IMG/VR virus record: IMGVR_UViG_3300025009_000017
DNA length: 55,350 nt
Source: a virus
Reading direction: 5' to 3' (one strand)
Both the position numbers and the translations under genes were made by a program. Below the pieces are notes generated by a model. That model was not told the DNA's origin, did not search any database, and saw nothing but the letters and a program-made list of their open reading frames with translations. Below are positions 12,977-32,753 of this stretch, one piece after another (within the stretch, counting starts at the first letter, position 1; every line of letters starts with the position of its first letter).

Positions 12977-13267
12977 CTACTTCTTCGTTTTGCCCTTAAA
13001 GAGGCCCTTCTTGATAGGTTCTGGCTTAACCGGAGCCTTCTGGGGGGTTGCCGGAGCCTGAGCCTGCAAGGTGGCCTTTACCGGGGTTCCGCGAACCCTG
13101 AACTGGGCCGGAACGGAGTCCAAGCTGACCGCAGGGGCTATTTCCCGGGGTGGCCGCTGCATCTTCTTGGGAAGGTTGGCTGTGCCCCTGGCCATGTCAG
13201 CCGCCTTCTCCTCGGGGGTCCGGACGTCCACCACGACGAAGTTACGGATCCTTCTTATCTCTGCCAT
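12977..13267 (-). CDS. Hypothetical basic protein (96 aa), last gene of the long late unit
   Basis: Minus-strand ORF ending just before the bidirectional terminator. Confidence 0.6.
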   Translation of the reverse strand: MAEIRRIRNFVVVDVRTPEEKAADMARGTANLPKKMQRPPREIAPAVSLDSVPAQFRVRGTPVKATLQAQAPATPQKAPVKPEPIKKGLFKGKTKK

Positions 13268-13289
13268 AAATTACTCACTTTCTCCTGGT

Positions 13290-13901
13290 TTACCAGGCGG
13301 CGGGAGAGATGTAGGTTATGTACATGGCTGCATCGGCGGCCACAGCGATGGGGGCGGCCGTGATGTTGCCGTAGGTGACCTCGGCGTTTCCGGCTCCGTC
13401 GTTTCTGGGCTGGGCGAATACCGCACCCGCTATCGGGGCAGCCGACAGCTGCAAACCGATTATGACGGCATCAGCCGGCATACCGGCCACGGCGATGGCT
13501 TCCATGGCGGTGGTGTTGGCGGCCAGGGCTCCGGCTCCGGCCAGGGCCAGCGGTCCGACTGTGACTATGCCGGCCACGTTGCCCTTCTCGGTGTCCAGCT
13601 CGTTGATGGCGGCCTGCACGTTTACGGCGGCTATTCCGCCGGCCGGGGTGTTGGCGATCAGGGCGGCGTTGGCCGGGGTGATCGCGGTCCAGTCGCCGTC
13701 AACCGACGGGGTGGACTTGGCCGACATGATGTACCACTGCGAGGTGTCGGTCTGGGTGCACATGTCGCCCACGTTGGCCTGGGTCGGTCCCGGCACGTTG
13801 TTGCCCAGGGCTACCCTGGCAGCGGTGTTGGCGGCGATGAACAGCTGGGTGACGTCCAGCCGCTGGCCCCGCCAGTGGTTTGATCCGCAGAAGTTTCCCA
13901 T
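13290..13901 (-). CDS. Fibre/spike-like structural protein (203 aa)
   Basis: Contains GGIAAVNVQAAINELDTEKG, a motif I associate with phage tail-fibre or spike proteins. The C-terminal half is Ala/Gly-rich. Confidence 0.5.
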   Translation of the reverse strand: MGNFCGSNHWRGQRLDVTQLFIAANTAARVALGNNVPGPTQANVGDMCTQTDTSQWYIMSAKSTPSVDGDWTAITPANAALIANTPAGGIAAVNVQAAINELDTEKGNVAGIVTVGPLALAGAGALAANTTAMEAIAVAGMPADAVIIGLQLSAAPIAGAVFAQPRNDGAGNAEVTYGNITAAPIAVAADAAMYITYISPAAW

Positions 13902-13966
13902 GATGAGTCTCCTTTGATTGAATTGAAGTGTTATTATAAAATGCCCTGTTTGGGTATTTTATCAGT

Positions 13967-14188
13967 TCACTTCACACCCTTTTTTGACTTCTTGGCCGGT
14001 ATCTCGGCCGGGGGTTCCTGTTCCACCGGAGCGGCCACTGACTGCTCTGAGTCCTCCGGCTGCATCTCCGCCTGCTCGTCCACTGACGGGAGCGGGGTGG
14101 AGAGTTCCACGGCGGCCTGGGCCATCTCCGGGGTCATGTTGGTCCGGTTGACGGATCCGTGATGTTTCCTGAAAGCAAATGGAGCCAT
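13967..14188 (-). CDS. Hypothetical acidic protein (about 73 aa)
   Basis: ATG at 14188 follows GAGAGGTGAACAAA. The track starts at a GTG at 14197. Confidence 0.55.
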   Translation of the reverse strand: MAPFAFRKHHGSVNRTNMTPEMAQAAVELSTPLPSVDEQAEMQPEDSEQSVAAPVEQEPPAEIPAKKSKKGVK

Positions 14189-14218
14189 TTTGTTCACCTC
14201 TCTTTTATTGGTTGATGG

Positions 14219-14779
14219 TTATTTATTCCTGACTACCTCTTTGATGACTTCGATCCCGCCAACCTGTCCGTCCACCATCGGATTCGCGCTGTCGTACTTG
14301 AAGGGGATGGCGCTGTTGGGCGGGGTGAACAGGAGTTCCGTGCCCTGACGCTTCTGGCCGTCAAAGGCCGTTCCGGTGGTCAGCCCGTAAACCCTGAGCA
14401 TGGGTCTGATGTAAAGCATGAAGGGATCCGGCACTGCCGTCAGGTTCAGCGTGATGGTCAGCAGCTCACCGCCGGTGGATATCACGCCCTCGATATGAAC
14501 GCCCACGTCTGAATCCTTGAATGTCACCAGTGGGGTCACTGCAGCGCCCGCAAAGGTGGCAGCGAAGGTCAGGGTGTTGTTGGGCATCATGTGGAAGACT
14601 GTGTTCAGCCAGGTGATGTCCGCCTGGTCGAACGTGGGCTGGTTGGTGTAGTCCTTAGCCACTATGATGATCGAGCCTTCTACCCTGGATGCTGTGCCCT
14701 CGCAGGGAACCCTGAAGGACTCGATGTACTGCCCGGGCGCTATGATCCGGTGCTGGTGGGGGAAGTTTATGACTCGCAT
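14219..14779 (-). CDS. Hypothetical beta-rich structural protein (186 aa)
   Basis: Lies within the late gene train. No motif recognised. Confidence 0.65.
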   Translation of the reverse strand: MRVINFPHQHRIIAPGQYIESFRVPCEGTASRVEGSIIIVAKDYTNQPTFDQADITWLNTVFHMMPNNTLTFAATFAGAAVTPLVTFKDSDVGVHIEGVISTGGELLTITLNLTAVPDPFMLYIRPMLRVYGLTTGTAFDGQKRQGTELLFTPPNSAIPFKYDSANPMVDGQVGGIEVIKEVVRNK

Positions 14780-14791
14780 GGTGAGCCTTTC

Positions 14792-15517
14792 TTATACTCT
14801 GTTTTCGGTGTCGGAGATCCAGATCTGGTCGAGGTCAAAGTAGACATCAACTCCAGGTAAACCTCCGAATTGCCACGATACTTGTATTGAATTTGTTGGC
14901 CATAAAGCAGATGGAACGAGAACGGATCCAGGAATGCGATGTAAAGAATTTACAATACTTAATGCTGGAGTTAGGCCATTCATCATAAAAGAAATTCTAT
15001 ACCAGGGATCTTCTTGAGGAATCGTAGTGGGCCATATTCTCGTAACCTGACTTCCAACGACACTGATGTCAGAATGAAAACTTGTAGAAGGAGCCCAATA
15101 AAGATCGGCGAAGGTTGTGTTTGCGAATGCCTCTTTCATTTCCCACCGACCTCCACCAAGATCGGTCCAATAAGTAACAGGAAACGTTATTGTAATTGTC
15201 GAAATGATACCAGCAGCTTGAATAGGAGTAAGTGAATAGAGGTTTGATCGAAGAATAAATCCGAAGAAACGTTCAGTCCCAACATTACCTACTGGGAGTA
15301 TACTTCTTCTTGCGGTTTGAATTCCTCCAAGAGCTTGATCATATGTGAATCTTAAACCCTTTCCGTTGTATCCATAAGTATCACCAGCAACAATACTTTG
15401 AAAAGGACTCGCCACAGAGTTGATCCACTTACTATCATCACTCCCATCGTCCAGGAACAGGTACGCCCCCGGCAGCACGCCCTGGAATATATTTACTGGC
15501 AGTCTCTCTCCAGCCAT
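14792..15517 (-). CDS. Hypothetical structural protein with a compositionally distinct (AT-richer) C-terminal two-thirds (241 aa)
   Basis: The ORF is continuous, but about 14860-15420 is visibly AT-richer than its own 5-prime end and the flanking genes. Confidence 0.65.
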   Translation of the reverse strand: MAGERLPVNIFQGVLPGAYLFLDDGSDDSKWINSVASPFQSIVAGDTYGYNGKGLRFTYDQALGGIQTARRSILPVGNVGTERFFGFILRSNLYSLTPIQAAGIISTITITFPVTYWTDLGGGRWEMKEAFANTTFADLYWAPSTSFHSDISVVGSQVTRIWPTTIPQEDPWYRISFMMNGLTPALSIVNSLHRIPGSVLVPSALWPTNSIQVSWQFGGLPGVDVYFDLDQIWISDTENRV

Positions 15518-15572
15518 GATCGTTCTCCTTTTAAGCCGTTATTATAGCTCTTTGATGGTTAATTGTCAATGC

Positions 15573-15902
15573 CTATTGGGTGGCCGGTCCGGTGCCCGAG
15601 AACTTGGCTCCCAGGAACTTCTCAGCCAGGTTGGACCCCATGTAAAGCAGGGTGATCATCACGTAGGATCCCGTCATGTAAACCCAGGCGTCATACAGTA
15701 CCTTGATGGCTCCCAGGGCTTCCGTGACGGCCCGGGCGTTCTCTATGGCTTCGTAGGATTCCCAGGTGGCCATGGAGCAGGTCCGCACGAACACCCCGGT
15801 CACCACGGCGTACAGGCCGGAAAACATGATCCAGGCGATGAACTTTCGGGAGGCCAGACGCTTGCCCTCCCGGGACAGGGCTTCTTTAAATTGGGGGCTC
15901 AT
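15573..15902 (-). CDS. Membrane protein (109 aa, about 3 hydrophobic segments)
   Basis: FIAWIMFSGLYAVVTGVFV and SYVMITLLYMG segments. Confidence 0.65.
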   Translation of the reverse strand: MSPQFKEALSREGKRLASRKFIAWIMFSGLYAVVTGVFVRTCSMATWESYEAIENARAVTEALGAIKVLYDAWVYMTGSYVMITLLYMGSNLAEKFLGAKFSGTGPATQ

Positions 15903-15914
15903 GGGGATCCTTTC

Positions 15915-16664
15915 TTATAGTGGTGGTGAACCATAATCAGGCTGGGTGTCGGAGATCTGGAAGTCGTGGATAACGAAGTAACCTTCCGTCATGTCCTCTC
16001 TGGGGTTGATCCCGAAGACAGGGAGCCAGGTGCCGGACCCGGGGACTATTGCTTCCCACATCGGATAGAGGATCCCGACGATTCTCCCGAGCACCCTGTC
16101 CCAACCCATCACTGCTATGGCTTTGACGTCTGCCGAGTAGTAGAATATGTTGATAAGCAGCTTATTCCTGCGGGCGTCCAGATCGTTGGTGAAGGATAGA
16201 ACATCAAAGAATGGCCCTGTCTGCTGGTCCCGTATCATGCTGAGTCCCGGCCTCAGCGTCATGATGTTCCTGGCGAAGTTGCCTGGTTCCACCGCCATCA
16301 GGAGAGGCCAGATGCCGGCTCCGCCCGGGTTGGTGTTCACGATGGTGTAGTCGAGCAGGCACCAGACATCCCGCCTGCGGGAAGACTTGGCAAAGGAATC
16401 AGGGGTGGCCCATGTCGGTATGTACTCGCCGATCCCGTCGTAGAAGTTCCATGGGGAAGAAACTATCGCATCGTCGCCCTGGACGAACACCGGACTGCCG
16501 TCTGTGTAATTGCCCGGAGGGAGCTTGTTGCTCATGGTCCAGTCCCAGCGCCACTGGGCGAACCCTGCCTCGTCTATGGTCTGTAAAGACCTGTTGCCCC
16601 TGGCCGGCAGGCTTTTATTACCCAGTGCGAAGTATTGCCTGGTCGGGAGCAGCGAGGTCACCAT
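15915..16664 (-). CDS. Hypothetical beta-rich structural protein (249 aa)
   Basis: CAGGAGAATCATC precedes the ATG. Confidence 0.65.
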   Translation of the reverse strand: MVTSLLPTRQYFALGNKSLPARGNRSLQTIDEAGFAQWRWDWTMSNKLPPGNYTDGSPVFVQGDDAIVSSPWNFYDGIGEYIPTWATPDSFAKSSRRRDVWCLLDYTIVNTNPGGAGIWPLLMAVEPGNFARNIMTLRPGLSMIRDQQTGPFFDVLSFTNDLDARRNKLLINIFYYSADVKAIAVMGWDRVLGRIVGILYPMWEAIVPGSGTWLPVFGINPREDMTEGYFVIHDFQISDTQPDYGSPPL

Positions 16665-16788
16665 GATGATTCTCCTGTTTGATCTTGTCCTTATTGTCCG
16701 GGTTGTCGACCCACTGCTTGATCTGTTCCTGGCGGAACTTCAGAAAGTCGGCCGGGGAGAACCCGGGTGCTACCATGAATTCACTCAT
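16618..16788 (-). CDS. Small hypothetical protein (56 aa)
   Basis: ATGA overlap with the M15 peptidase stop. Reads MSEFMVAPGFSPADFLKF... and overlaps the next gene by 47 nt. Confidence 0.4.
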   Translation of the reverse strand: MSEFMVAPGFSPADFLKFRQEQIKQWVDNPDNKDKIKQENHHGDLAAPDQAILRTG

Positions 16789-17345
16789 ACCAGACCTCTT
16801 TTCTCCCGTTGCTTCCTGTTGTAGACTACCAGAGCCAGAGTTCCGGTGAGCAGGAGAGCCGTGATACCTCCCGCGGTGATGCCGGCCTTGCTGGTGGCCG
16901 CTTTGCCCAGGGCTGCACCGGCACCCTTCAGCCATTCCTTCGCCTTGGCCACTGTGAACGAGGGATCCTCTATATGAGGGCTGTCCTTGAACTTCCAGAA
17001 GTAGCCTGAAGTAAGACCCTGTTTCTTCGCCGCCTCAGCCATAGCCTTAAATCCTGCATCGTAATTCCAATCTCCCTTGCCGGTCGCTGGATTGACCGGG
17101 AGAAGGTCCACAGCCAGACCCCAGTTGTGTGCCGACAGTCCAGGTTCAGCCTTGGTGACAATATTTCCTGGGGTGGTTCTTCCCTGTGCATAGAGATCCT
17201 TCTGTTCCTCCATCGTCCGCTTGCCGAAGACCAGGATCGAGTCGTGGGGGACCGATCCGGCAGCAGTCGTGACTTTGGTCCTGAATGCCGGGTCCAGTGC
17301 GTCCCATCCGGCCTGTTTATCTTTTGGTATAGTTAATTTGCCCAT
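16785..17345 (-). CDS. Peptidase M15 family cell-wall hydrolase (VanY / L-Ala-D-Glu peptidase-like) with a C-terminal transmembrane anchor (186 aa)
   Basis: SAHNWGLAVD (H-x6-D) and DSPHIE metal-ligand motifs. The C-terminus GITAGGITALLLTGTLALVVY is hydrophobic. The track ORF 16785..17588 is an N-terminal extension. Confidence 0.75.
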   Translation of the reverse strand: MGKLTIPKDKQAGWDALDPAFRTKVTTAAGSVPHDSILVFGKRTMEEQKDLYAQGRTTPGNIVTKAEPGLSAHNWGLAVDLLPVNPATGKGDWNYDAGFKAMAEAAKKQGLTSGYFWKFKDSPHIEDPSFTVAKAKEWLKGAGAALGKAATSKAGITAGGITALLLTGTLALVVYNRKQREKRGLV

Positions 17346-17347
17346 TA

Positions 17348-18511
17348 TTACCTGAAGTGAATAATTCCTATGGCCAGGTCGTCCGTGGCCGGAGAGGTGT
17401 TCTGTCCTATGATGCCATCGGATATCGGGTGGCCCACTTCCCGGTCGTGAACGGGAACGCCCACCAGGGTGTAGCAGTCGGCCAGGGCGTTCGTGGCGGC
17501 TGAAAGAGCAAGCACCCGGTCGCCGTTTATCACTGTTGCAGTCGGGGCGTCGATCACGGCCACATACCCGCACCCGCTGACCGTGCACCAGTACCAGTCC
17601 TGGCTGGCTACCGAGACGTCAAAGACAGTTCCTATGGGCATAAGGTCGCCGGCAGTGGCGTAGGTGGTTTTCTTATAGGACCCGGTGGATCCCTCAACGA
17701 TCCATCCGCGATACATGGTAACACCGGAGCCATTGTAAAGGCGGACGTCAACACCGCCGAGAGAATTCAGGCGGACGGAGTCGGTGGAAATCTGTTGGGT
17801 GGCTTTAAGTGAGTCGCCTTTATACATTTTCGAGCCACCATTTGACAGCCATCCACAAGTAGTAGTGCCCGTAACGCTTCCAAGTGTCCATCCGGTTCCG
17901 GTGGTAGATGAAGTAAATCCTATTTGGCTTAACGTTGCATTGTTCGTGTAAGAGCTGCTTCCAACCCGAATATTTCCCATTATTGCCAATATCGAGGCAC
18001 CAGCATCGTAAATACTCCGAGTACCGAACACAACTGGCTCAGTAGCTGTCGCTGCAAAGGTGTCCGGCCCTGCAGTCGTGGTGATCCGGGCTGGCCGGAG
18101 GATATTGCTGAAAGTCGGGGCGGCAGCCACGCCGTTTCCCTGAAGGTAGTAGTAGGCGGCCGGGAGCGCCAACTCCTGCATCACGCCAGATCCATTGGTG
18201 TAAAAGGTCTTCCAGTTCCCGCCTGTCAGCCAGGTGGAGGGCACTGTGCCACTCCAGGCAGTCCAGGCTGTTCCGTTCCAGTAGGCCATCCGGCTCACCT
18301 CACCCTTGCCCACTGAGAGCTGGGTGACCAGGCCATACCCGGCCAGTGTCCAGGGCTTCCAGGTCAGGCTGGCCACTTCCCACACCGCCATCTTGCCGAC
18401 ATTGCCCTTGCCCACGTCCAGGGGACCGCCGTGTACTATCTTGGCCAGACCGCCCAGGGCCATCAGCACCAGGATGGTGCTTATGATCGCTTTCCATTTG
18501 TCAGATATCAT
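17348..18511 (-). CDS. N-terminally membrane-anchored beta-rich protein, possible spike or receptor-binding protein (387 aa)
   Basis: Begins MISDKWKAIISTILVLMALGGLAKI. Followed by a Gly/Thr/Ser/Trp-rich body whose central part (about 17700-18060) is AT-richer. Confidence 0.6.
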   Translation of the reverse strand: MISDKWKAIISTILVLMALGGLAKIVHGGPLDVGKGNVGKMAVWEVASLTWKPWTLAGYGLVTQLSVGKGEVSRMAYWNGTAWTAWSGTVPSTWLTGGNWKTFYTNGSGVMQELALPAAYYYLQGNGVAAAPTFSNILRPARITTTAGPDTFAATATEPVVFGTRSIYDAGASILAIMGNIRVGSSSYTNNATLSQIGFTSSTTGTGWTLGSVTGTTTCGWLSNGGSKMYKGDSLKATQQISTDSVRLNSLGGVDVRLYNGSGVTMYRGWIVEGSTGSYKKTTYATAGDLMPIGTVFDVSVASQDWYWCTVSGCGYVAVIDAPTATVINGDRVLALSAATNALADCYTLVGVPVHDREVGHPISDGIIGQNTSPATDDLAIGIIHFR

Positions 18512-18597
18512 TTTCTTCTCCCAAAGCGGCCAGCAGGGGCTTACCAGGAAAAAGGGGTGAAGCCAAAAACCCGGCAGAGGCCCCACGCTGGCGAAGG

Positions 18598-19071
18598 TTA
18601 AAACATTATTATTATCGTTATCACGGCCACCACCGCCAGTAGTGATTCCCAGAGGGCGGTCTCGTAGAGGTTCAGCATCCGTGGCTCCCAGTGGTTCAGC
18701 CACACGGCCGGGATGTAAAACGGCGACCCGGGGTGGCAGGGGAAGATTGGAAGACCAAATATTGCCTTTATCACGTCGTCCACGTCCATCGCTATGCCTA
18801 TCAAACCAAACCACATCTGCTGGTAGGCTCCCAGTTCCGTGAAGGCAGAGTAGTACAGGAACATGGCGGGTATAAGCATCAGGAACAGTTTCAGTTTCTT
18901 GAGGATCTGGCTGGTCCGGGTGTTGCCCCAGTCGTAGAACTCATTGAACAGCAGGTCGGCCGGGATATGCGTCAGGAAAGCAGCGATGGCGCCGGCCACA
19001 GGAGATCCAGATATTTTCCAGGCCACAGTCCCCGCTGTCATGCTTGTTGCGAAGTGGCCTATCGGCGTCAT
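18598..19071 (-). CDS. Multi-pass membrane protein (157 aa)
   Basis: Four to five hydrophobic segments. His/Asp residues near the N-terminus (IGH..., THIPAD) faintly resemble membrane-bound hydrolases of the YdjM type. This is a weak resemblance. Confidence 0.6.
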   Translation of the reverse strand: MTPIGHFATSMTAGTVAWKISGSPVAGAIAAFLTHIPADLLFNEFYDWGNTRTSQILKKLKLFLMLIPAMFLYYSAFTELGAYQQMWFGLIGIAMDVDDVIKAIFGLPIFPCHPGSPFYIPAVWLNHWEPRMLNLYETALWESLLAVVAVITIIIMF

Positions 19072-19427
19072 TTGAATATTCCTATTAAGATTGCGGTTAT
19101 GGTTGAGATGGCCAGACCGCCGGAGGTGTATTTCCAGAAGCTGATCTTGGACTCGGCTTTGCGGGTGAGGGTCTTCTGGTCGTTGATGCTCCGCACCTGC
19201 AGCGCTATGATGCTGTCCCGCTGTTCCACTGCCATCTGTCTATTATAAACTTCCCGTTCCGACACAGTCAGAAGGGAGTCTTGGAAGGCATAACCAGCCC
19301 GAACGTAGTCGAGTGAATCAAGTTTGGCGATAAGTATTCGCGCCTGTGGCGCGTTTAACAATATCTGACTTTGAGCCAACGTCCACTGACATACGATAAG
19401 GGCCAGTATAAAGTAAATTCTTTTCAT
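19068..19427 (-). CDS. Protein with an N-terminal signal-like segment and a C-terminal TM segment (119 aa); possible unimolecular spanin-like protein
   Basis: MKRIYFILALIVCQWTLAQ is a signal with a poor lipobox. GGLAISTITAILIGIF lies at the C-terminus. Confidence 0.55.
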   Translation of the reverse strand: MKRIYFILALIVCQWTLAQSQILLNAPQARILIAKLDSLDYVRAGYAFQDSLLTVSEREVYNRQMAVEQRDSIIALQVRSINDQKTLTRKAESKISFWKYTSGGLAISTITAILIGIFK

Positions 19428-19594
19428 TTCCAATTCAGCATTTGCCCGCAGCCGGGGCATGATTTGATTCCGTTGATGACATGGGCTCCGCACACCGGAC
19501 ACCGGAAGTTGAAGCTTTTGCTGTCGTCCGTCTGGCCCACCTGGGATTCCATCAGGGGGGGCTCGCCCTGTTCGGTCAGAACTCTGAAAGACAT
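19424..19594 (-). CDS. Small zinc-ribbon protein (56 aa, below the track cutoff)
   Basis: MSFRVLTEQGE...CPVCG...CPGCGQ. ATGA overlap with the next gene, and GGAG lies 8 nt upstream. Confidence 0.5.
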   Translation of the reverse strand: MSFRVLTEQGEPPLMESQVGQTDDSKSFNFRCPVCGAHVINGIKSCPGCGQMLNWK

Positions 19595-19598
19595 GGTT

Positions 19599-20438
19599 CT
19601 ACTCCATTATATCGTTTGGCATGATGTCGTCGGTGAAGCCGGAGACAGATGCCTTGGTGGGTGACGATTTGGCAGGAACCGGGTGAAGGATGGTGAGCAC
19701 CACGCCGTGCTTGGTTTCCACGATGTAGTCCCCGCTGGACAGTTCCAGCACTTCCACGATGGGGTCTTCCAGCAGGTTGATCTCGGCCACCGGGATCAGG
19801 GTATCCTTGCCCTGCCGGGAGAAGACCTTGAAGAAGTTGTCGTCGGTGATCTTGGCGTGGGGAGCGCTGACGGAGAAGGGCCGGCCACCGGCGAACTGCA
19901 GCAGCACTTCCTGCTCCATGCTCAGGTCCTCATTGATATCTTCCAGCTTCTGATACAGATCCTGCATGGTCTGTGCCTCCGCTATGTTTGACTGCACGGC
20001 GCTTTCTACCGGCTTGCCCAGCAGGCCCTTCTCGGCCATCCACTTCAGGTGGTCCTTGTCGTTTGAAACGGCCGTGCCCACCTGCTTCTTTACCCGGGGC
20101 TTCCTGGGCTTTGATACCGCCGTGCCCACTCCGGGAGCCACAATGAAGGTTTTGGAATTGCGAAGGATCGACAGCGGGCCGGCGAAGGTCTTGGAGAACA
20201 CCTTGCCGTAATCCAGATCGTTACCCGGCCAGTCGGGTTTGAACCTCCAGTAGATGCCCTCCAGCATTTGCTTCAGGGCTGAGTTGGAGATGGAGTTCTC
20301 GGATGTGCCGGTGCGCTTCAGAGTGTCCCGGTAGACCTGGTCCATCTTCAGCATCAGGGCTTTCTGGTTCTTGTCCTGTTTTGGTTCCTCAACGCCCACC
20401 AGAGCATCCAGGGCCGAAAGGTCTTTTAACTTAGTCAT
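19599..20438 (-). CDS. Hypothetical protein (279 aa)
   Basis: Internal short duplication VGTAVS x2. No motif recognised. Confidence 0.65.
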   Translation of the reverse strand: MTKLKDLSALDALVGVEEPKQDKNQKALMLKMDQVYRDTLKRTGTSENSISNSALKQMLEGIYWRFKPDWPGNDLDYGKVFSKTFAGPLSILRNSKTFIVAPGVGTAVSKPRKPRVKKQVGTAVSNDKDHLKWMAEKGLLGKPVESAVQSNIAEAQTMQDLYQKLEDINEDLSMEQEVLLQFAGGRPFSVSAPHAKITDDNFFKVFSRQGKDTLIPVAEINLLEDPIVEVLELSSGDYIVETKHGVVLTILHPVPAKSSPTKASVSGFTDDIMPNDIME

Positions 20439-20766
20439 CGTTCTTCCCCTCTATTTTATTGATGAGTATTCTCTGGAGCTCGGCATCCTTCAGCGTGTCG
20501 GTCACTGTCCATTTGAACTTGTAGTTGGCCCACTTGTTTACCAGGAGCAGGTGTTTGGCCTGAAGGTCGGAAAAGGCCGAGTCCAGTTCCCGAACCTGCC
20601 ACTTGGCGTTGGCCAGCAGGATCGAGTCGGCTTCCAGTTCTGACTGGTGCAACAGGTCGTTGTTGTGGATCACCCTCTGCTGAGCCTTGATAACTATGGC
20701 TGATACCCAGATACAAAGAGCCAGTGCAATGGACAGGCCGATGATTATTTTGGTGCTGGTCTTCAC
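20431..20766 (-). CDS. Type-II membrane protein with a coiled-coil-like ectodomain (111 aa)
   Basis: N-terminal IIIGLSIALALCIWVSAIVI, then a heptad-like region. The topology resembles an i-spanin, but no partner lipoprotein is seen. Confidence 0.55.
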   Translation of the reverse strand: MKTSTKIIIGLSIALALCIWVSAIVIKAQQRVIHNNDLLHQSELEADSILLANAKWQVRELDSAFSDLQAKHLLLVNKWANYKFKWTVTDTLKDAELQRILINKIEGKNDD

Positions 20767-22183: not shown

Positions 22184-22193
22184 AGGGTCTCCT

Positions 22194-22874: not shown

Positions 22875-22936
22875 TTTAGCTCCGCTCGTTATTGGCTTTC
22901 TGGCCAGTACCACACCCAGGACTATGACGCCCCCTA

Positions 22937-24006: not shown

Positions 24007-24041
24007 CACAGGGGGCCGGATTGGATACCGGCTCCCCTGTG
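24007..24041 (-). other. Strong stem-loop downstream of the capsid candidate (no U-tract)
   Basis: CACAGGGGGCCGG-attggata-CCGGCTCCCCTGTG, 27 nt after the stop at 24068. Confidence 0.7.
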
Positions 24042-26111: not shown

Positions 26112-26795
26112 TTAAATTAAAGTAAAGTTCGGTTGTTCCTGAGCTTCACCCTCCGGCTCAACCTTTTTGCCCATCCTGAAGCTGGTGTACTGCAGAACGA
26201 ACGCCCGCTTGACCAGCTCTTTCAGGGACTCCAGATCATTTGTCGGCCACTCGATGCCTTCCGGGAACATGGACTTCAGAACTTTGGCGCTCTTGGAATT
26301 CAGGGCATCTCCGTAAAGGAACCTGTCGGCCTTCAGTGCCGAGTAAACCTGGACGAAGAACTTGCGGATGAGCAGCGCATCCTGATAAGCCTGATTCTCC
26401 GCCTGCCTCTCAAATTGCTTCATGCTGTCGTAGTGTTCCATCGTGGACTGCTCGGGAGGAAAGCCGCTTTTAAGGAGGTCCAGGTATCTGAAGGAAAGGA
26501 TCTTCTCGATGGTGGAGGCTCCCAGTGAGATCTCCTCGCCGTTGTAATTCCCGGTTGACAGCTCGGACTTGATCTGATTGATTATGTCGCCCTTCTTCCC
26601 GAGATCCTCCTTGAGCCTGACCGCCCGGTCGTGTATCCACCGCCAGAGTTCCTGGGTAATGACGATCCTGCCTCCGGTCCTCCCCGAGTAAGTGGTGGCC
26701 TTCTTCCCCACCTCGTCCGGCGGATTGTCCTTGCGGTTGCACTCCACCACCACTTCCCTGACCGGCTCGGCCGGGTTCATCATCACTGCTTTCAT
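26112..26795 (-). CDS. Hypothetical protein (227 aa)
   Basis: Lies within the late gene train. Confidence 0.65.
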   Translation of the reverse strand: MKAVMMNPAEPVREVVVECNRKDNPPDEVGKKATTYSGRTGGRIVITQELWRWIHDRAVRLKEDLGKKGDIINQIKSELSTGNYNGEEISLGASTIEKILSFRYLDLLKSGFPPEQSTMEHYDSMKQFERQAENQAYQDALLIRKFFVQVYSALKADRFLYGDALNSKSAKVLKSMFPEGIEWPTNDLESLKELVKRAFVLQYTSFRMGKKVEPEGEAQEQPNFTLI

Positions 26796-26796
26796 G

Positions 26797-27006: not shown

Positions 27007-27030
27007 TTCTTCACCCCTTCTTTTATATTG

Positions 27031-27438
27031 TCAGTCCATTATTCCCCTGTCAGTCACCTGGTATTTGCCTCCCACCAGGTAGAGCTGGCGGATGTTGTTG
27101 GGATCCAGGGCCAGGTGCGGAGCGTTCTGCGGTTTGAACTGGTGGAAGTATGGCTGCCATCCCTGGTCGCCTTTGGGCTGCATGGTCAGTATGGCGGCCA
27201 CCACTCCCAGGTGGGTCATGGCGCATCGTGCGCCCATCTTCTTGGTCCACTCCCTGAAGTTGATCCTGGTCCCGTCGGCGAACTCTACCACTTCGGGCAT
27301 CGGGATCTCGGCCTCGATCAGCTCACCCTGGAGGTTATTGTTCCAGAGAAATTTCTTGTAAAGCTCGGCCGACTTCTTGATCTGGTCTTCCAGAGAAACC
27401 ATCTCGGACATAAATCCGTTGTTAAAGCTCATGCTCAT
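27031..27438 (-). CDS. Hypothetical protein (135 aa)
   Basis: ATGA-type overlap with 27435..27710. Confidence 0.65.
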   Translation of the reverse strand: MSMSFNNGFMSEMVSLEDQIKKSAELYKKFLWNNNLQGELIEAEIPMPEVVEFADGTRINFREWTKKMGARCAMTHLGVVAAILTMQPKGDQGWQPYFHQFKPQNAPHLALDPNNIRQLYLVGGKYQVTDRGIMD

Positions 27439-27710: not shown

Positions 27711-27724
27711 CCCTTTTCAAAAAA

Positions 27725-29059
27725 TTACTTTGGACCCGTGATTCCTTTCATCAGGTTCCCCGCCAGCCCCCCGCCCTGGAGGGCACTCATGCTCTGTTGT
27801 ATCCAGCCCTTCTTGTATGCGATCCATCCTATCAAGAATACGCCAGCACCTACGGCGAAAGGGGCCCAAGGAATGTCCATGCTCTTTTTGTTGTCCACCC
27901 CTTTGTCCTGGACTTCCTTCAGGTTCTTCTGAACCTGTTCTTCCTGCTTGATGATGGCGTCCCGTTCGACTGCGGTGATCTTGCCGGCCTTGAAATCCTC
28001 CCAGGCTTTTCTCTGGCGCTCCGCAGACTCGTCGATGCCGGCGATGGTCTTTGAGTTGATCTTGTAGTTGTTCTGACGGGTGATCACCTCGGCTCCGGCG
28101 GCCAACGCTTTGCTCATGGTGAATACCAGACCAACCACTATGATGCCAACCATTATCACGCCCACTGGAACTCCCACCTGGTCTGCCGGTATCTTGTCGC
28201 CCGAGATCAGTGTGGCCGTAACCCTGGTCCCGCTTGCAGAGGTCAGTGAACCTTTTCCTTCGGTCTGGGCCAGACGGACCGCCGTGTTCAATGCGTCGTA
28301 GAATGAATTGTCCTTTGAGGCAAACCCTTTGATGGTCGGCTCCATTGCGTAGAGCTGGTCCATCAGTTTCTTTGAGGCGGAGCTGTATCCGTCGAGGATG
28401 ATCTTCACATCGGGGTCTGTCACCTGTTTGCCCTGGGATAATGCCAGCGTCCTGAAGTTGCGAAGCTGCCGGTCGCAGTATTGTTTCTGTATCAGGGTGT
28501 TGGCCCAGACGGAACAGAAGTCGTTGATGTTCTTCTCGGCTTGGGCAATCTGGGCCGGAGTATAAATGACAGCCTTCGCCACCTGTGTCGTTTTCGCTAT
28601 GAACTTGGCCGGGTCGAAGATCTTTCCGAAGGTGATCTTGGCGTCTTCTTTAATGTTCTCCAGGGTTCCCAGATAAGATGTCGCAACGTCGAGTTTTGAC
28701 TTCAGAGCCTTCATCAGCACCGGGTCGGTCAGGGCCTTGTCCCAGTTGGCGTCAACGTAATCCAGGATATTCAGGGCTGATCGTTTCTGCTGGTCGTTTA
28801 TCTTCGCGGACTTCTTGATCGGGTCATAGGCCGCCTGGAACTCCGGGTGCTTTGGGTTGTAGTCTCCGATGGCTTTCTCACCTGCCCCCACTCCGCTGAT
28901 GCTGGTGTCGGGCTCCGGCGCTGTGGTCGGGATCTGACGGACTGCGTAGATGATGTCGTCCCCGGGCTTCGGAAGCTTGGCGATGTCCATCTGGGTCATC
29001 TTTTCCCTCTCGGGTCCGCTTCTCAGCGGATCACCCTGACCGATCTGTGCATAGCTCAT
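27725..29059 (-). CDS. Membrane-spanning structural protein (444 aa)
   Basis: Central TM segment VGVIMVGIIVVGLVFTM and C-terminal WAPFAVGAGVFLIGWIAY. The N-terminus MSYAQIGQG resembles MSYAIQGQVG of 29645..31069. Confidence 0.7.
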   Translation of the reverse strand: MSYAQIGQGDPLRSGPEREKMTQMDIAKLPKPGDDIIYAVRQIPTTAPEPDTSISGVGAGEKAIGDYNPKHPEFQAAYDPIKKSAKINDQQKRSALNILDYVDANWDKALTDPVLMKALKSKLDVATSYLGTLENIKEDAKITFGKIFDPAKFIAKTTQVAKAVIYTPAQIAQAEKNINDFCSVWANTLIQKQYCDRQLRNFRTLALSQGKQVTDPDVKIILDGYSSASKKLMDQLYAMEPTIKGFASKDNSFYDALNTAVRLAQTEGKGSLTSASGTRVTATLISGDKIPADQVGVPVGVIMVGIIVVGLVFTMSKALAAGAEVITRQNNYKINSKTIAGIDESAERQRKAWEDFKAGKITAVERDAIIKQEEQVQKNLKEVQDKGVDNKKSMDIPWAPFAVGAGVFLIGWIAYKKGWIQQSMSALQGGGLAGNLMKGITGPK

Positions 29060-29068
29060 TGCAGTTTC

Positions 29069-29338
29069 CTATCTCGCTCTTTTGATTATGATTTTCCACA
29101 TCTTGCCTTCCGGTATCAGGCTCACCCAACCCCGGGCCACCAGTTCACGGGTCCAGTTCATCAGGGTTCCCTCGGCCAGCGCTTTGGTGAAGGGGTTCAG
29201 TCCGCGGATCCCTCCGGTGGCCATCAGGTCATTCACGCCTTTTACCAGGGTTTGAACGTCCCCGTCCGGAACCACAAATGTAGCCGTCATGGTCGTGGTG
29301 TCGACGAGGATCTTGGCGTTCATTTGCAGTATGGCCAT
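29069..29338 (-). CDS. Hypothetical protein (89 aa)
   Basis: Lies within the late gene train. Confidence 0.6.
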   Translation of the reverse strand: MAILQMNAKILVDTTTMTATFVVPDGDVQTLVKGVNDLMATGGIRGLNPFTKALAEGTLMNWTRELVARGWVSLIPEGKMWKIIIKRAR

Positions 29339-29339
29339 G

Positions 29340-29621
29340 TTACACCTTCATTCCGAGTTTGTCCGCCATCAGCAGGTAGGCTTTGTCGATTCCGTTGGAG
29401 AGCATTCTGGACTGCTGTTCCACCTGGTCCACCGCCTGCTTGTTGCCGATTGCCGAGTTGATGCTTCCGGCCGCCTGCAGCTGAACGAGCTGCTGTTCCA
29501 TTCCGTTTGCCTGCTGAAGCAGGGCCATCACTTCCTCTGCTGTTTTCCGGACCTGCTCCTGAATGACCGGCTCCAGGGCTTTGCGCTGGTCGGCGAAGAC
29601 TGTTTTGATTATGTTTCCCAT
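29340..29621 (-). CDS. Hypothetical helical protein (93 aa)
   Basis: Lies within the late gene train. Confidence 0.6.
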   Translation of the reverse strand: MGNIIKTVFADQRKALEPVIQEQVRKTAEEVMALLQQANGMEQQLVQLQAAGSINSAIGNKQAVDQVEQQSRMLSNGIDKAYLLMADKLGMKV

Positions 29622-29644
29622 TTTTCACCCCTTTGTTTTATGGT

Positions 29645-31069
29645 TTATTTATTGCGTTTGGCCATCATCTTCTTGACGAGGAACCCTCCGCCGAGGATCA
29701 GGGCGCTCCCTCCGAGTATCACTCCGACCTTTCCGGTGGTGGTTCCCCAGACCTTCTGCACCATGCTGTCGGAAACCTTGACCACCACACCGCCACGGAC
29801 TGCCACCGGAACCTGCGCCCTCACGACCTCGCCCTTCTTCACTGTGTCGCCCGGCTTCACGTCCCGGGTCACATCGGCTCCGACATCGTAACCCACCACG
29901 AACGGGGTGTTGGCCGGGACCGGAGTGCCTTCGGTGATGGTTGGGTACTGGGCGGTCTTGCTGAGGTCAACTGCGGCCTGGGCTTCGGTCTTGCCGGTCT
30001 GGTTCTGGGCAGTGGTGATGGAAGTGCCGAGGTTCTGGCTCTTGGGGTCTGAAGAATTGGTCAGGGCTGTGGCTGCGACAGCCAGATCCTGCTGGGTGGG
30101 TTTGGCCTTCAGCTTCTCGGCTTCAAGTTTGATGAACGACTCGTTCACCTTGGCCATCCGTTCCGCCTGAATCAGAAATATATTCGTGCTCCCATCGGCA
30201 GTTTTCTCACCGGCTATTGATGCGGCATTTGCTTCCATGCCGAGAGCTGCCTGGGAATTGGCTGTCCCTTGAGTTTTGTTCTTGGATCCATCGTTGATTA
30301 CCTTCGGATAATAAACGCCCATGATCCACTGATTGAACGGGTCCAATGCCCACCGGAGCATATTGTAGTCGTTCAGACCGGGGTTCCAGTACTTGACGCT
30401 GGTATCGTTGGCCCACCTTCCGGCAGGGCTGGCATGAAAAGCATCCACTATTTTCTGCATTTCAGCCTGAGCAGTTTTGAAGGTCTCTATGACAGCTTCC
30501 CGCTGTTTCATCTTTTCCTTCATCCCGCCGCCGAACAGATTCTTGATGGCGTTCTGTATTGAGACCGCTTTGCCAACCAAGCCGGTCGGGTCTACCGCAG
30601 CTGCGGTCTGGACCACCGGGTCATCCGCCAGGGCTCCCACCTGGGCATCCGGGTTGGCCAGTTTATAAGCGATGATCACCTTCATGGCCGCATGGCGCTG
30701 CATGGCGTTCATCCTGGGCAGTTCTCGTATCAACTGCTGGATGGCCTCCGCTGTCAGGGCGGTGCCGGTAACCACTCCGTCAGTTACCACAACCTTGACG
30801 CCGTCCTTCTGCATCTTCTGCGTGGTGATCTTCCGGCCTTCAGGTCTTCCGCCGGTTGAGGATCCACGGCCGCCCTTCTGCTCACCCGGATAACCCACCT
30901 GGGCATCCATGCCCTCGTCCATGGTGTTGTAATTCTGGCTCTGGCTGGTGCCGTAGGCCATCCGGTTCCCGGTGGACGACATCGTAAGACTGCCCTTGGC
31001 TCCCACCTGACGTGAAACCTGCCGTCTCCGGCGGGCGACTCCGACCTGGCCTTGAATTGCGTAAGACAT
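29645..31069 (-). CDS. Large structural protein with a C-terminal TM anchor and a barrel-sandwich-like GDTVKKGEVV segment (474 aa)
   Basis: The C-terminus VGVILGGSALILGGGFLV is hydrophobic. VKPGDTVKKGEVVRAQ resembles lipoyl/hybrid-barrel motifs. Confidence 0.7.
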   Translation of the reverse strand: MSYAIQGQVGVARRRRQVSRQVGAKGSLTMSSTGNRMAYGTSQSQNYNTMDEGMDAQVGYPGEQKGGRGSSTGGRPEGRKITTQKMQKDGVKVVVTDGVVTGTALTAEAIQQLIRELPRMNAMQRHAAMKVIIAYKLANPDAQVGALADDPVVQTAAAVDPTGLVGKAVSIQNAIKNLFGGGMKEKMKQREAVIETFKTAQAEMQKIVDAFHASPAGRWANDTSVKYWNPGLNDYNMLRWALDPFNQWIMGVYYPKVINDGSKNKTQGTANSQAALGMEANAASIAGEKTADGSTNIFLIQAERMAKVNESFIKLEAEKLKAKPTQQDLAVAATALTNSSDPKSQNLGTSITTAQNQTGKTEAQAAVDLSKTAQYPTITEGTPVPANTPFVVGYDVGADVTRDVKPGDTVKKGEVVRAQVPVAVRGGVVVKVSDSMVQKVWGTTTGKVGVILGGSALILGGGFLVKKMMAKRNK

Positions 31070-31093
31070 AGTTCATGCTCCTGTTAATTTGGT

Positions 31094-31708
31094 TTATCTG
31101 ATTTCCACCCCGTCAACCCTGGCGTAGTACCTGGTCATTGGGACCACAGTCTTGCGCTGTTCTCCGAACTTCAGAGTGGTTGACGATGTTTCCATGGGGA
31201 CCCATCCGTCAGAGGTTCTCATCACCGCGGGATTCTTTCTCACGAAGTCTTCCACCTGGCTGTCAACCTTCAGCTCTGGATAAACGTGGTTGATGGTTTT
31301 CTGGTTGGGTGCATACTGCGACTGCCACGCTCCCACCGCCCGGGCGGTGTATCTTCGGTTAAAGCAAAGAGCCAGCATCATTGTGCATTTTCCGTCACAG
31401 TCTTCCATCGGCTGAACCTTGGAGCCTTCGTAAAGATAATCCCATATCTGCCTGGCCATCTCCTTCGGCCAGATTATCATTTCGGCAGTGATCGGGTCGG
31501 GGTGATATCTTATCACCTTCTGGCAGACGTAAAACAATTTCTCAACAGGAGTGGATCCTTCCAGCTTCGGATCCTGGATTATTCTCTGGGCCAGCATATG
31601 CACCTGGGGAGACCAGCTGCCCTCAACTGCCAGCTCCACCACCCGGATTATCGTCGGGTCCTGGATTGTCTTGAGGTTCTGGGTTACCCTGCCCGCCATC
31701 TGGTCCAT
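31094..31708 (-). CDS. Transglutaminase-like (Cys-His-Asp) domain protein (204 aa)
   Basis: DCDGKCTMMLALCFNRRYTARAVG (Cys motif) is followed by INHVYPE and SDGWVPMETS, consistent with the transglutaminase-core pattern. AAGGAGCGGAGCAAC precedes the ATG. Confidence 0.5.
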   Translation of the reverse strand: MDQMAGRVTQNLKTIQDPTIIRVVELAVEGSWSPQVHMLAQRIIQDPKLEGSTPVEKLFYVCQKVIRYHPDPITAEMIIWPKEMARQIWDYLYEGSKVQPMEDCDGKCTMMLALCFNRRYTARAVGAWQSQYAPNQKTINHVYPELKVDSQVEDFVRKNPAVMRTSDGWVPMETSSTTLKFGEQRKTVVPMTRYYARVDGVEIR

Positions 31709-32753
31709 GTTGCTCCGCTCCTTGCTGTGGTTTCTGGTCTTCGTCGGCCGTGTAGATCTCGTTCAGGGCTTCCTGCTGTCCTTCGATCCGGCCCCGGTCC
31801 ACCGAGGTCTTGATAATCATTTCCATCTGCTTCTTGGCCACGATGTAGAGGCCCCGGTCTTCCAGCGCTTTGGCCAGCTGCGGCACGATGGGTTCCAACA
31901 GCATTCCCAGATCAAAGCCGAATATGTTCAGGCTGTTCTTCTCGCCGATGATGTCCTTGATGGCTTCCACCAGCGTCATGGCATTCCCGCCTTCGGGGTC
32001 TATCTGCGAAACTCCCTGGACCTCCTGAACCCTTTTCGCTACCAGGGCCTGCTTCGCCTCGAACGCCATGTCCTCCCGTTCCCACCGGCGGGCCCGCTCC
32101 GCTCTCCTGGTCTCCAGCTCATCGCGCTTCTCCTCGATCTGGAACTGGGTGGCCGCCATCATCGCTTCCTTCTGGACTGACAGGGCGTTCTTCAGGACCT
32201 CCTGCATCTGTTCGGCCTGGGACTGCTTCTGGTTCGCCGTCTGGTCCAGCATCCGGAGAAACATCTTTTCCATCAGGGTTCCGCCCTGGAGCTCGCCTTC
32301 GCTCTCGTCTCCGAAGATGGACTTGGCCGGCCGGTTCACTTTTTTCTCCAGCTCCTCCAGCTTGGCCATCACCGACTCCAGCACTGCTGTCACCTCGCTG
32401 CCGATCCCCTGGTCGTTTTCTTCCTCGGTGCCTTCCTCCTGGTGGGCTGCCGCTTCCAGCGGGTGCGGGGTCTGACGCATCACGTCGACTGTCTTCTGGG
32501 TTATGACCACCCCGGTCTCTTTGTTCTTGGCGACCAAATAAAAACGGCCCACGCCAAACTGCTTTTCTAAATCCTCCGAGTCAAGGTAGCCTTCAATGGG
32601 CTGACCTTGCGTAAGATTCTCTCGCTGTTTGTTTGGGCCGATGGAGTAAACATAGATCGCTATTTTCTCCTGTGGCACTTCCCGGACCATGCGGTCATCG
32701 AAGGCAGTGCCTAAAAGTTCTCTCGCTGAGACCTTTCTCTCTTCCAGGTCCAT
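31623..32753 (-). CDS. Coiled-coil-rich protein, possible scaffold (376 aa), first gene of the late unit
   Basis: AAGGGGGTGAGAGT precedes the ATG. Long Glu/Gln/Lys-rich helical middle. The tail overlaps the next gene by 86 nt. Confidence 0.65.
   Translation of the reverse strand: MDLEERKVSARELLGTAFDDRMVREVPQEKIAIYVYSIGPNKQRENLTQGQPIEGYLDSEDLEKQFGVGRFYLVAKNKETGVVITQKTVDVMRQTPHPLEAAAHQEEGTEEENDQGIGSEVTAVLESVMAKLEELEKKVNRPAKSIFGDESEGELQGGTLMEKMFLRMLDQTANQKQSQAEQMQEVLKNALSVQKEAMMAATQFQIEEKRDELETRRAERARRWEREDMAFEAKQALVAKRVQEVQGVSQIDPEGGNAMTLVEAIKDIIGEKNSLNIFGFDLGMLLEPIVPQLAKALEDRGLYIVAKKQMEMIIKTSVDRGRIEGQQEALNEIYTADEDQKPQQGAEQHGPDGGQGNPEPQDNPGPDDNPGGGAGS

Follow-up and report, generated by a model that had tools for sequence, protein, structure and literature searches.

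A late gene unit with two predicted jelly-roll proteins and no recognisable packaging ATPase in a complete 55-kb virus genome

The DNA considered here (IMG/VR virus record IMGVR_UViG_3300025009_000017), a stretch of 55,350 nt that is called the window below, carries a 20-kb late gene unit at positions 12977-32753. The unit is transcribed from a sigma-70-type promoter and ended by a bidirectional intrinsic terminator, both as an earlier reading made from the letters alone (the sequence-only reading) had described them (Table 1). That reading treated 12977-32753 as a single unit of about 35 proteins; the supported genes number about 29-30, a perfect internal promoter lies at 15569->15541 and the module probably reaches beyond these coordinates. 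Within them, family matches were obtained only for a glucosaminidase (22194..23126) and a DUF5661 protein (20763..21365). Two adjoining genes encode small proteins of 265 and 238 amino acids (aa) for which jelly-roll folds are predicted, and they are accompanied by many membrane-anchored proteins, cell-wall-active proteins and a transglutaminase-like enzyme. The kind of particle that such a gene set may build is discussed below.

The window holds a complete genome of about 55 kb, circular or circularly permuted, and comes from groundwater-type metagenomes. Its prefix equals its suffix over 64 nt, both ends lie inside one 12-nt tandem array, and circularisation at this overlap gives 55,286 bp with a single minus-strand open reading frame (ORF) spanning the junction. 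From its N-terminal domain, this ORF runs through about 35 xQLG tetrapeptide repeats into the 173-aa protein of 54445..54966. Proteins identical or related to those of the window occur on contigs of 55,389, 55,143, 54,767, 55,422 and 58,253 bp from independent samples. The end overlap, the junction ORF and the similar-sized sister contigs establish that the genome is complete; genes missing from the window are therefore truly absent and not hidden outside it.

Hallmarks of tailed phages were sought with PHROGs in each ORF of the window, the smaller ones concatenated into pseudo-proteins, with Pfam in the complete set of late ORFs and in the ten largest of the other proteins, and with NCBIfam in ten key proteins. 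Six divergent relatives (loci L001, L003/L004, L005, L007, L008 and L009, which share gene order) were checked by precomputed Pfam annotation, and the orthologs in L007 and L009 also with PHROGs. No profile match to a large terminase subunit, a portal protein, an HK97-fold capsid protein or a tail or tape-measure protein was found in the window or in the six relatives, and the three libraries gave no match to a tail tube, baseplate or sheath protein. The late regions of the relatives yielded only Glucosaminidase, DUF5661, PG_binding_1, Big_5 and intein in Pfam, to which PHROGs added only peptidoglycan-binding and lectin-like matches. The portal-sized late ORFs (444 and 474 aa, the latter the largest inside the unit) are coiled-coil proteins with transmembrane (TM) anchors. 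The sequence-only reading, which had recognised no terminase, portal, HK97 capsid or tape measure and had named a profile search for the standard set as a check, is borne out by these scans. It had also counted three P-loop proteins, and a six-frame scan finds exactly three genuine Walker-A proteins, all early: an AAA ATPase, a Sak4/AAA_24-like protein and a 292-aa protein with weak FtsH/IstB/DnaC/Hda-type similarity around the P-loop only. The 292-aa protein was considered as a packaging ATPase and rejected as unsupported, the similarity being at the level of the P-loop, and it is not orthologous to the IstB-like gene beside the late module of L001. An FtsK/HerA (A32/P9-like) packaging ATPase was not found in any library scan, and the late regions of the relatives contain no ATPase.

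These results bear on the proposal that the genome belongs to an extremely divergent member of the Caudoviricetes whose hallmarks have drifted beyond profile detection and whose jelly-roll proteins serve as decoration, cement or fibre. A length of 55 kb is typical of tailed phages, and so is the early module (Sak4-like protein, AAA ATPase of phrog_8638, Cas4-like nuclease and HNH endonucleases); a large unannotated ORF of 964 aa adjoins the late module, and jelly-rolls are known from the cement and fibre proteins of tailed phages, examples being the KHP40 cement protein and the fibre matches described below. However, the large terminase subunit is the most conserved phage protein and is missing from the scans and from the relatives, there is no fourth Walker-A protein in six frames of a genome that is complete, and no late protein of the unit exceeds 474 aa or matches a tube, sheath or baseplate. 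It is unusual for a tailed phage to have about one-third of its late proteins anchored in membranes, as is the case here, and the best-conserved late proteins are predicted jelly-rolls and not HK97 proteins. A divergent tailed phage is considered quite improbable.

The 265-aa protein belongs to an orphan family. Its AlphaFold2 model, built from 11 sequences, has a predicted local distance difference test score (pLDDT) of 63 and a predicted template-modelling score (pTM) of 0.68 and shows a confident eight-stranded beta-sandwich over residues 1-150, followed by a beta-rich second half that is poorly resolved. In a Foldseek search against the PDB, four entries of GH172/DUF2961 come first (2.7e-4 to 6e-3), and DUF2961 is a cellular homolog of double-jelly-roll (DJR) capsid proteins (PMC8812541). 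The viral matches include the major capsid proteins (MCPs) of phiCjT23 (0.033) and STIV (0.037), Vp54 of PBCV-1, P3 of PRD1/PR772 and the SGIV/iridovirus MCP; viral DJR MCP entries make up about 17 of the top 50 PDB hits. A search of BFVD with the same model retrieved the STIV coat protein (6.6e-3).

The 238-aa protein, also the member of an orphan family, was modelled from 11 sequences (three of them at 27-32% identity) with a pLDDT of 68 and a pTM of 0.66 as one beta-sandwich and one long helix. Foldseek retrieved mostly single-jelly-roll (SJR) coat proteins of circo-, picorna-, calici-, luteo- and bromoviruses, together with TNF/C1q and BcsB, all weakly (E 0.017-0.17). No HK97 protein stands among the top 50 fold hits listed per search for either model. 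Thus, the comparison by Foldseek that the sequence-only reading had proposed for the two proteins brought up viral jelly-roll coat proteins and no HK97 fold, although with marginal scores. The jelly-roll fold of both proteins is a solid prediction of the models, and the double barrel is suggested for the 265-aa protein.

Both proteins are the best-conserved late proteins, with 44-61% (238 aa) and 45-57% (265 aa) identity in five relatives and 26% and 25%, respectively, in the most distant one (L005). Conservation, position, expression signals and the lack of an alternative candidate argue for a capsid role of both. They are small and beta-rich, as the sequence-only reading had described them, and its choice of the two as the best capsid candidates gains from the predicted folds and the conservation; its preference for the 238-aa protein as MCP may have to be turned round, since of the two it is the 265-aa protein that looks DJR-like.

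The genes of the 238-aa protein, the 265-aa protein and the glucosaminidase stand in fixed order in all six loci, including one at only 25-28% identity. In every locus whose sequence covers the region, the 393-aa, 135-aa, 227-aa and DUF5661 genes are found, as are the two small TM genes and the part that encodes the N-terminal anchor of the spike, and the coiled-coil and membrane proteins are 20-38% identical among the relatives or undetectable. The families are small: the 238-aa family comprises 8 clusters at 90% identity, 11 clusters make up the 265-aa family, and an exhaustive profile search of 1.84 billion representative proteins with the 238-aa family returned 3 representative clusters only. 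Neither megablast with the unit nor tblastn with the 238-aa and 964-aa proteins matched any of 50,697 phage records (INPHARED), tblastn with the 265-aa protein matched none of 72,556 plasmids (PLSDB), and pattern-based profile scans of GTDB species genomes and IMG/VR with the 265-aa family gave no relative. Metagenome scans returned two short contigs with the 238-aa profile and nothing with the 292-aa ATPase. The family member at NCBI is an unbinned metagenome contig and gives no clue to the host, and no description of the lineage turned up in the literature that could be searched.

A circular replicon of fixed size in many samples, without a relative in the IMG/VR pattern scan, could also be plasmid-like and not a virus, its 20-kb module serving to build an apparatus of the cell envelope for transfer, adhesion or secretion; membrane proteins and peptidoglycan hydrolases are also typical of conjugation systems. 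Such an element is considered very improbable. The module lacks any ATPase, including those of the VirB4, coupling-protein or relaxase type, and neither the 72,556 plasmids nor the GTDB genomes gave a match. Moreover, the genes form a single-strand operon with a late promoter and a terminator, in a lineage with phage-type recombination genes, homing HNH endonucleases and an intein, and the operon has coat-protein-like folds as well as a scaffold-like protein and a protease-like enzyme at its head.

The late unit is enriched in membrane proteins. A hydrophobic 19-mer is found in 10 of the 29 late ORFs, as compared with 3 of the 50 early ORFs, and two of the ten (13290 and 24068) are probably not TM segments. 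The sequence-only reading had listed at least nine proteins with hydrophobic anchors; the enrichment is real, whereas two of its entries fall away, namely ORF 22937..23176, which has no homolog and overlaps the conserved start of the glucosaminidase gene, and the 393-aa protein of 24874..26055, which has no strict TM segment and only moderately hydrophobic Gly/Ala-rich stretches. The halves of this 393-aa protein divide exactly at a conserved QVG tripeptide (182-184): residues 1-184 are strongly basic (pI 10.8), and residues 185-393 are acidic, rich in Gly, Ala and Val and moderately hydrophobic. It may represent a core protein or a linker between DNA and membrane.

Two cell-wall-active proteins are membrane-tethered. 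The glucosaminidase, whose domain and upstream TM segment had been noticed from the sequence, is present in all six relatives (6/6) and is a candidate entry lysin of the virion membrane or an endolysin. Orthologs of the 474-aa protein in L009 and L007 carry PG_binding_1, and the protein is a candidate for an entry protein of the virion membrane. The M15 peptidase with a C-terminal anchor that had been proposed was not recovered, as no ORF of the unit matches Peptidase_M15/VanY (Pfam E <= 0.5, PHROGs E <= 0.01). The anchored 387-aa protein, whose counterpart in L007 is an 800-aa beta-helix version, is a candidate spike or receptor-binding protein.

A high content of membrane proteins, the joining of a basic N-terminal half to a hydrophobic half in the 393-aa protein and the absence of a packaging ATPase from the late module and its relatives would also suit a non-icosahedral enveloped or pleomorphic virus, or a vesicle-forming element, in which a genome coated with basic proteins is wrapped in host-derived membrane, no packaging motor is needed and the jelly-rolls, instead of closing into a shell, are abundant proteins of the envelope, the matrix or the spikes. 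The likeness of the N-terminal barrel of the 265-aa protein to TNF/C1q trimeric heads, which are typical of surface proteins, fits this proposal as well. Conversely, a search with the 265-aa model at full length favours capsid-type proteins with two barrels, and most of what the 238-aa model brings up are icosahedral coat proteins. Surface and receptor genes are usually the most variable of a virus, whereas these two are the most conserved, and a separate variable membrane-anchored spike (17348..18511) is already present. Plasmaviridae, the known bacterial enveloped pleomorphic viruses, have genomes of about 12 kb, which also counts against the proposal. It is considered unlikely.

The second gene of the unit encodes a 204-aa protein that belongs, as judged from sequence comparison, to the transglutaminase-like superfamily of thiol enzymes. 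C104, H141 and E173 are invariant in a 4-sequence alignment of the family, the protein is 51-55% identical to its relatives, and one ortholog matches Transglut_core (5.9e-5) and Peptidase_C93 (0.17) in Pfam. The window copy falls below the Pfam threshold, and the family profile gave no match against PDB sequences; the transglutaminase-like assignment in the sequence-only reading is thus upheld through the ortholog. In L003 (1788-3431) and L004 (1773-3431), an intein of about 340 aa, recognised by a faint LAGLIDADG_3 and a weak Intein_splicing Pfam match, sits exactly before Cys104. Inteins tend to sit at catalytic sites.

A possible substrate motif recurs in the late proteins. QVG is observed 10 times in them as compared with 1.7 expected (about 6-fold; the maximum in 3,000 shuffles is 8), whereas the early proteins contain 0 as compared with 1.5 expected. 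The excess is also seen in L001 (7), L009 (10), L003 (5) and L005 (2) and is missing from L007 (0). The sites, often AQVG, lie at equivalent positions of orthologs and frequently within the first 10 residues; they are carried by the late proteins of 29645-31069, 27725-29059, 24874-26055, 20763-21365, 19599-20438 and 14219-14779, and both the AQVG and the HEKEH motif of the DUF5661 protein are kept in the distant L005. In the 474-aa protein, two QVG sites bracket the Arg-rich 13-mer VARRRRQVSRQVG, which we take to be reminiscent of the adenovirus mu peptide. Enrichment and conservation of the motif beside a thiol enzyme suggest that virion proteins may be matured by proteolysis at QVG; alternatively, the invariant Gln of the motif may be the site of transglutaminase-type cross-linking. 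By functional analogy only, the arrangement may be likened to the maturation of adenoviruses, Polintons and virophages, in which a cysteine protease cuts core and cement precursors at short motifs that contain Gly; in the window, the structural module encodes a thiol enzyme, and the short conserved xQVG, which ends in Gly, recurs in several structural proteins, basic ones among them. The enzymes differ, as that of the window is of the transglutaminase/papain fold (Cys before His) and not of the Ulp1/adenain type (His-Glu/Asp-Cys).

The late unit shares several features with the PRD1-type viruses of the Tectiliviricetes (Tectiviridae, Corticoviridae PM2, Autolykiviridae and STIV-like viruses): a candidate DJR MCP that adjoins a predicted SJR protein, the compact size of this MCP candidate, many small membrane proteins in the structural module, candidate spikes at the end of the module and no tail genes. 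A DJR MCP beside an SJR minor capsid protein is the canonical PRD1-type pairing. P2 of PM2 has about 269 aa, and P7 and P15 of PRD1 are membrane-associated peptidoglycan hydrolases to which the tethered hydrolase of the window is comparable. Unlike these viruses, the window has no FtsK/HerA ATPase, its 55 kb stand against 7-18 kb, and it encodes neither a protein-primed PolB nor a rolling-circle Rep; a tailed-phage-type initiator, loader and recombination module are present instead. Its MCP candidate has no sequence similarity to any known DJR family, and its transglutaminase-like enzyme and QVG motif have no counterpart there.

The viruses with two SJR MCPs (Sphaerolipoviridae, Simuloviridae and Matshushitaviridae/P23-77) resemble what is proposed for the window in having two adjacent, unrelated small jelly-roll genes (about 170-290 aa), an internal membrane with many proteins and vertex spikes. 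In these viruses, the packaging ATPase gene lies immediately upstream of the MCP pair; the gene upstream of the jelly-roll pair of the window (24874..26055) shows no Walker A motif and no ATPase match. MCP structures of two-MCP viruses are absent from the top 50 fold hits of the 238- and 265-aa models. Some of the group have circular double-stranded DNA (dsDNA), as in the Simuloviridae (PMC12642351); their genomes differ in size (16-31 kb; PMC12642351, PMC12643093) and their hosts are halophilic archaea or Thermus.

Among prokaryotic DJR viruses, the packaging ATPase is missing only in the Odin and FLiP groups (PMC5894146). In combining a DJR MCP, here a candidate, with no recognisable packaging ATPase, the window is like the Odin group and FLiP/phiCjT23 (Finnlakeviridae); of the viral PDB entries, the phiCjT23 MCP scores best with the 265-aa model. 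These groups differ in having genomes of 9-17 kb or less, with single-stranded DNA in FLiP and phiCjT23, and a route without a motor is easier to imagine for such small genomes than for 55 kb of dsDNA. There is a precedent for capsid proteins that escape sequence comparison, as the DJR MCPs of ANME-1 viruses could be recognised only through structure modelling (PMC9894754).

Taken together, the late unit is read here, with a probability judged to lie somewhat above even, as a virion module from a new lineage: tailless viruses of bacteria that have an internal membrane, a jelly-roll capsid and no recognisable packaging ATPase. The sequence-only reading had set a large tailless internal-membrane virus beside a divergent tailed phage; the former has gained real but incomplete support and is the better supported, and the latter has gained none. 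What probability the readings discussed here leave over belongs to something else.

Several points weigh against this interpretation. Both models are of medium confidence (pLDDT 63 and 68), they cover two of the about 30 late proteins, and the C-terminal half of the 265-aa protein, its putative second barrel, has a pLDDT below 50. The scores of the viral MCP folds are marginal (E 0.03-0.4; template-modelling score 0.2-0.38), and profile searches of both families against PDB sequences gave no link to a known MCP. By hhalign, the 265-aa family shows no internal duplication and the two families no kinship, a result that carries no information where jelly-rolls are concerned. Taken alone, the N-terminal barrel of the 265-aa model matches, with high probability in BFVD, the TNF/C1q-like domains of tailed-phage fibres, and a jelly-roll alone therefore does not mean a capsid. 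Most DJR dsDNA viruses carry the FtsK/HerA ATPase that the scans failed to detect, and the early module is of the tailed-phage type; its Sak4-like protein shares 42-50% identity with the counterparts in gammaproteobacterial tailed phages (Pseudomonas, Erwinia and Acinetobacter). At 55,286 bp, the genome is about three times as large as prokaryotic DJR virus genomes (7-18 kb; PMC5894146) and also above the bound of 50 kb for Preplasmiviricota (PMC11071308). The likenesses to PRD1-type viruses, two-MCP viruses and Finnlakeviridae are at the level of architecture.

If the late unit is the virion module of a tailless jelly-roll virus, the particle would have an icosahedral shell in which jelly-roll proteins stand vertically above an internal lipid membrane. 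As its MCP, the 265-aa protein would serve, probably a compact double jelly-roll that forms the capsomers, and the 238-aa protein would be the vertex (penton) protein or a second MCP. About eight TM-anchored late proteins would populate the membrane, from which the tethered glucosaminidase and the 474-aa family could breach the cell wall at entry, and the anchored 387-aa spike could bind the host via its variable distal domain. During assembly, the acidic coiled-coil 376-aa protein, a candidate scaffold or size-determining protein, may help to build the particle, and the 204-aa thiol enzyme may process several virion proteins at the conserved QVG sites; cleavage of the 393-aa protein would release a basic DNA-binding half and a membrane-associated half. 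Since neither a terminase nor an FtsK/HerA ATPase was found, and the relatives have no late ATPase, the genome would probably be enclosed without a motor, by condensation on basic proteins and co-assembly with the membrane. Packaging by a P-loop protein of the early region would be less likely.

Table 1. Features of the late unit and of related regions in the window (loci beginning with L are relatives).
Feature	Position	Strand	Details
Late promoter TTGACT-17-TATAAT	32786..32814 (32814->32786)	-	sigma-70-type; 11/12 consensus positions
376-aa acidic coiled-coil protein, first gene of unit	31623..32753	-	no family match; 35-38% identity in L001, L003, L009
204-aa transglutaminase-like thiol enzyme, second gene of unit	31094..31708	-	invariant Q99, C104, H141, E173
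474-aa protein with C-terminal TM anchor	29645..31069	-	QVG at 8-10, 21-23, 57-59, 143-145
Two small conserved late proteins	29340..29621 (93 aa), 29069..29338 (89 aa)	-	~40% identity to L001, L003, L009
444-aa two-TM coiled-coil protein	27725..29059	-	N-terminus MSYAQIGQ, similar to the 474-aa protein; TM1 directly preceded by QVG (residue 294)
135-aa protein	27031..27438	-	no family match; 38-58% identity in L001, L003, L007, L009; among the best-conserved late genes
227-aa late protein	26112..26795	-	conserved in relatives
393-aa bipartite protein	24874..26055	-	conserved in L001, L003, L005, L007, L008, L009
238-aa predicted single-jelly-roll protein, orphan family	24068..24784	-	candidate penton (vertex) or second major capsid protein
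GC-rich 13-bp hairpin	24007..24041	-	3' of the 238-aa gene; -32.2 kcal/mol, z = -3.35, no U-tract
265-aa predicted jelly-roll protein, orphan family	23182..23979	-	conserved Trp/Arg-rich segment E191-I222, RRRYWPGI
310-aa glucosaminidase with N-terminal TM anchor	22194..23126	-	PF01832 4.8e-15, phrog_3513; TM residues 55-73
Two related proteins, 205 and 200 aa	20763..21979	-	second: DUF5661 (Pfam 4e-10), GIEHEKEH motif, two AQVG sites
Small membrane protein cluster	18598..20766 (20431..20766, 19068..19427, 18598..19071)	-	plus 279-aa protein with QVG site
387-aa beta-rich protein with N-terminal TM anchor	17348..18511	-	anchor and first ~130 residues conserved, distal part variable
Distal late genes	12977..16664	-	beta-rich 249-, 241-, 186- and 203-aa proteins, 109-aa TM protein, small basic/acidic proteins
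Internal promoter TTGACA-17-TATAAT	15541..15569 (15569->15541)	-	12/12 consensus; upstream of variable distal genes
Bidirectional intrinsic terminator AAAAAGGCCGTAGG...CCTACGGCCTTTTT	12922..12964	.	ends late unit
Two beta-rich paralogs, 263 and 251 aa	9778..11361 (9778-10569, 10606-11361)	-	outside 12977-32753
End arrays	2-183 and 55062-55350 (junction); flanking coding 190-440, 54445-54966	.	identical 12-nt tandem array; crossed by one minus-strand ORF

Some details of the unit and its surroundings complete the inventory. The strong hairpin that had been noticed after the 238-aa gene is real and probably acts as an mRNA stabiliser or attenuator. Gene calls were corrected at two places: ORF 29320..29628 is in the wrong frame (the real gene is 29340..29621), and a 488-aa ORF has its true start at 18511, which gives the 387-aa spike candidate. 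Between the spike gene and the next beta-rich gene, 683 nt (16665-17347) hold no ORF conserved in relatives, and ORFs 16618..16935, 16970..17191 and 17146..17307 look spurious. The distal late genes are the variable part of the module and are candidates for vertex, spike or host-range proteins. One of them, 15915..16664, is a paralog of 9778..10569, and the three beta-rich paralogs of about 250 aa (9778-10569, 10606-11361 and 15915-16664) have alike N-termini (MGHFRKRIF / MSNFKRRIF) and are possibly alternative vertex or receptor-binding proteins. In L001, L003 and L009, the late module closes with homologs of these genes arranged in tandem. Because homologs of 9778..11361 lie inside the module in the relatives, the virion module probably continues past a recombinase island to at least 9778.

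This island (11897-12912) is the sole plus-strand island of the window; it encodes a serine recombinase/DNA invertase (phrog_125, 2e-39) and small ORFs, separates the two parts of the virion module and adjoins the beta-rich paralogs, which are possible host-range proteins. An invertible segment around the recombinase was considered and dropped, as no convincing inverted repeats were found. Beside the virion module lies the ORF of 964 aa (6351-9245), the largest protein of the genome, which matched nothing in Pfam, PHROGs, NCBIfam or PDB sequences or, by tblastn, in phage records and has no match resembling a tape-measure protein.

Nearly all genes of the window are on the minus strand, the GC content is about 0.55, and no tRNAs or Rfam RNA families were found. 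The early gene set is ordinary for a phage, with a replication initiator, HNH endonucleases, a Sak4-like ATPase, the AAA ATPase, a D12 methyltransferase, a radical-SAM protein and a weak RuvC-like match. The identity of the Sak4-like protein to those of the tailed phages named above is a weak hint at a proteobacterial host. Next to it, a 373-aa ORF (45437-46558) has a C-terminal half that resembles, by eye, a Cas4/RecB-type nuclease with a C-terminal Cys cluster; together with the Sak4-like (44352-45107) and weak RuvC-like (41731-42666) genes, it forms a recombination module of the tailed-phage type. HNH endonucleases are encoded at 43033-43566, 50967-51296 and 34144-34560, two of the three being of the phrog_99 (homing) type; these endonucleases and the intein of the relatives together show a lineage heavily visited by selfish elements. 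An exact 48-nt tandem duplication at 37980-38075, within ORF 37473..38150, doubles the peptide LVPMPESTPVTLQDIV. In the end array, a PTGE-repeat ORF (55031..55315) is an alternative frame that is probably wrong, because the junction-spanning xQLG frame runs on into the flanking coding sequence.

In relatives, a loader of the DnaC/IstB type lies directly upstream of the late module (L001 1103-1831; L003 and L004 1-144), and the window carries a different replication-initiator gene at this position. The differing genes at the edge of the late module indicate that replication modules have been swapped between relatives and the virion module kept.

A more far-reaching proposal, which is put forward only tentatively and is held to be rather doubtful, would make this genome the founding member of a family or order of bacterial jelly-roll membrane viruses that has so far gone unrecognised. 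Such a lineage would reach 55 kb, about three times the range reported for prokaryotic DJR viruses, replicate and recombine in the manner of tailed phages, do without a packaging NTPase by condensing its circular dsDNA on basic core proteins and assembling it together with the membrane, and use a QVG-cutting thiol protease. Within it, QVG maturation by a protease of transglutaminase fold would be an adenovirus-like core processing invented independently in a bacterial virus. As the IMG/VR pattern scan and the phage, plasmid and GTDB sets contain no relative, standard virus-calling pipelines may miss the lineage, and further members could be sought with the two orphan families of capsid candidates, the thiol enzyme and the QVG motif as markers. 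The reading of the late unit, if right, raises the directly testable question of how 55 kb of dsDNA are encapsidated without a terminase or an FtsK/HerA motor. If the reading of the late unit as a jelly-roll virion module is true, the genome would break the size rule of 7-18 kb for prokaryotic jelly-roll viruses (PMC5894146), and the internal-membrane jelly-roll architecture could hold a genome of tailed-phage size in bacteria. The combination of a tailed-phage-type early region with a jelly-roll late region would then represent an exchange of modules between the two great lineages of dsDNA viruses.

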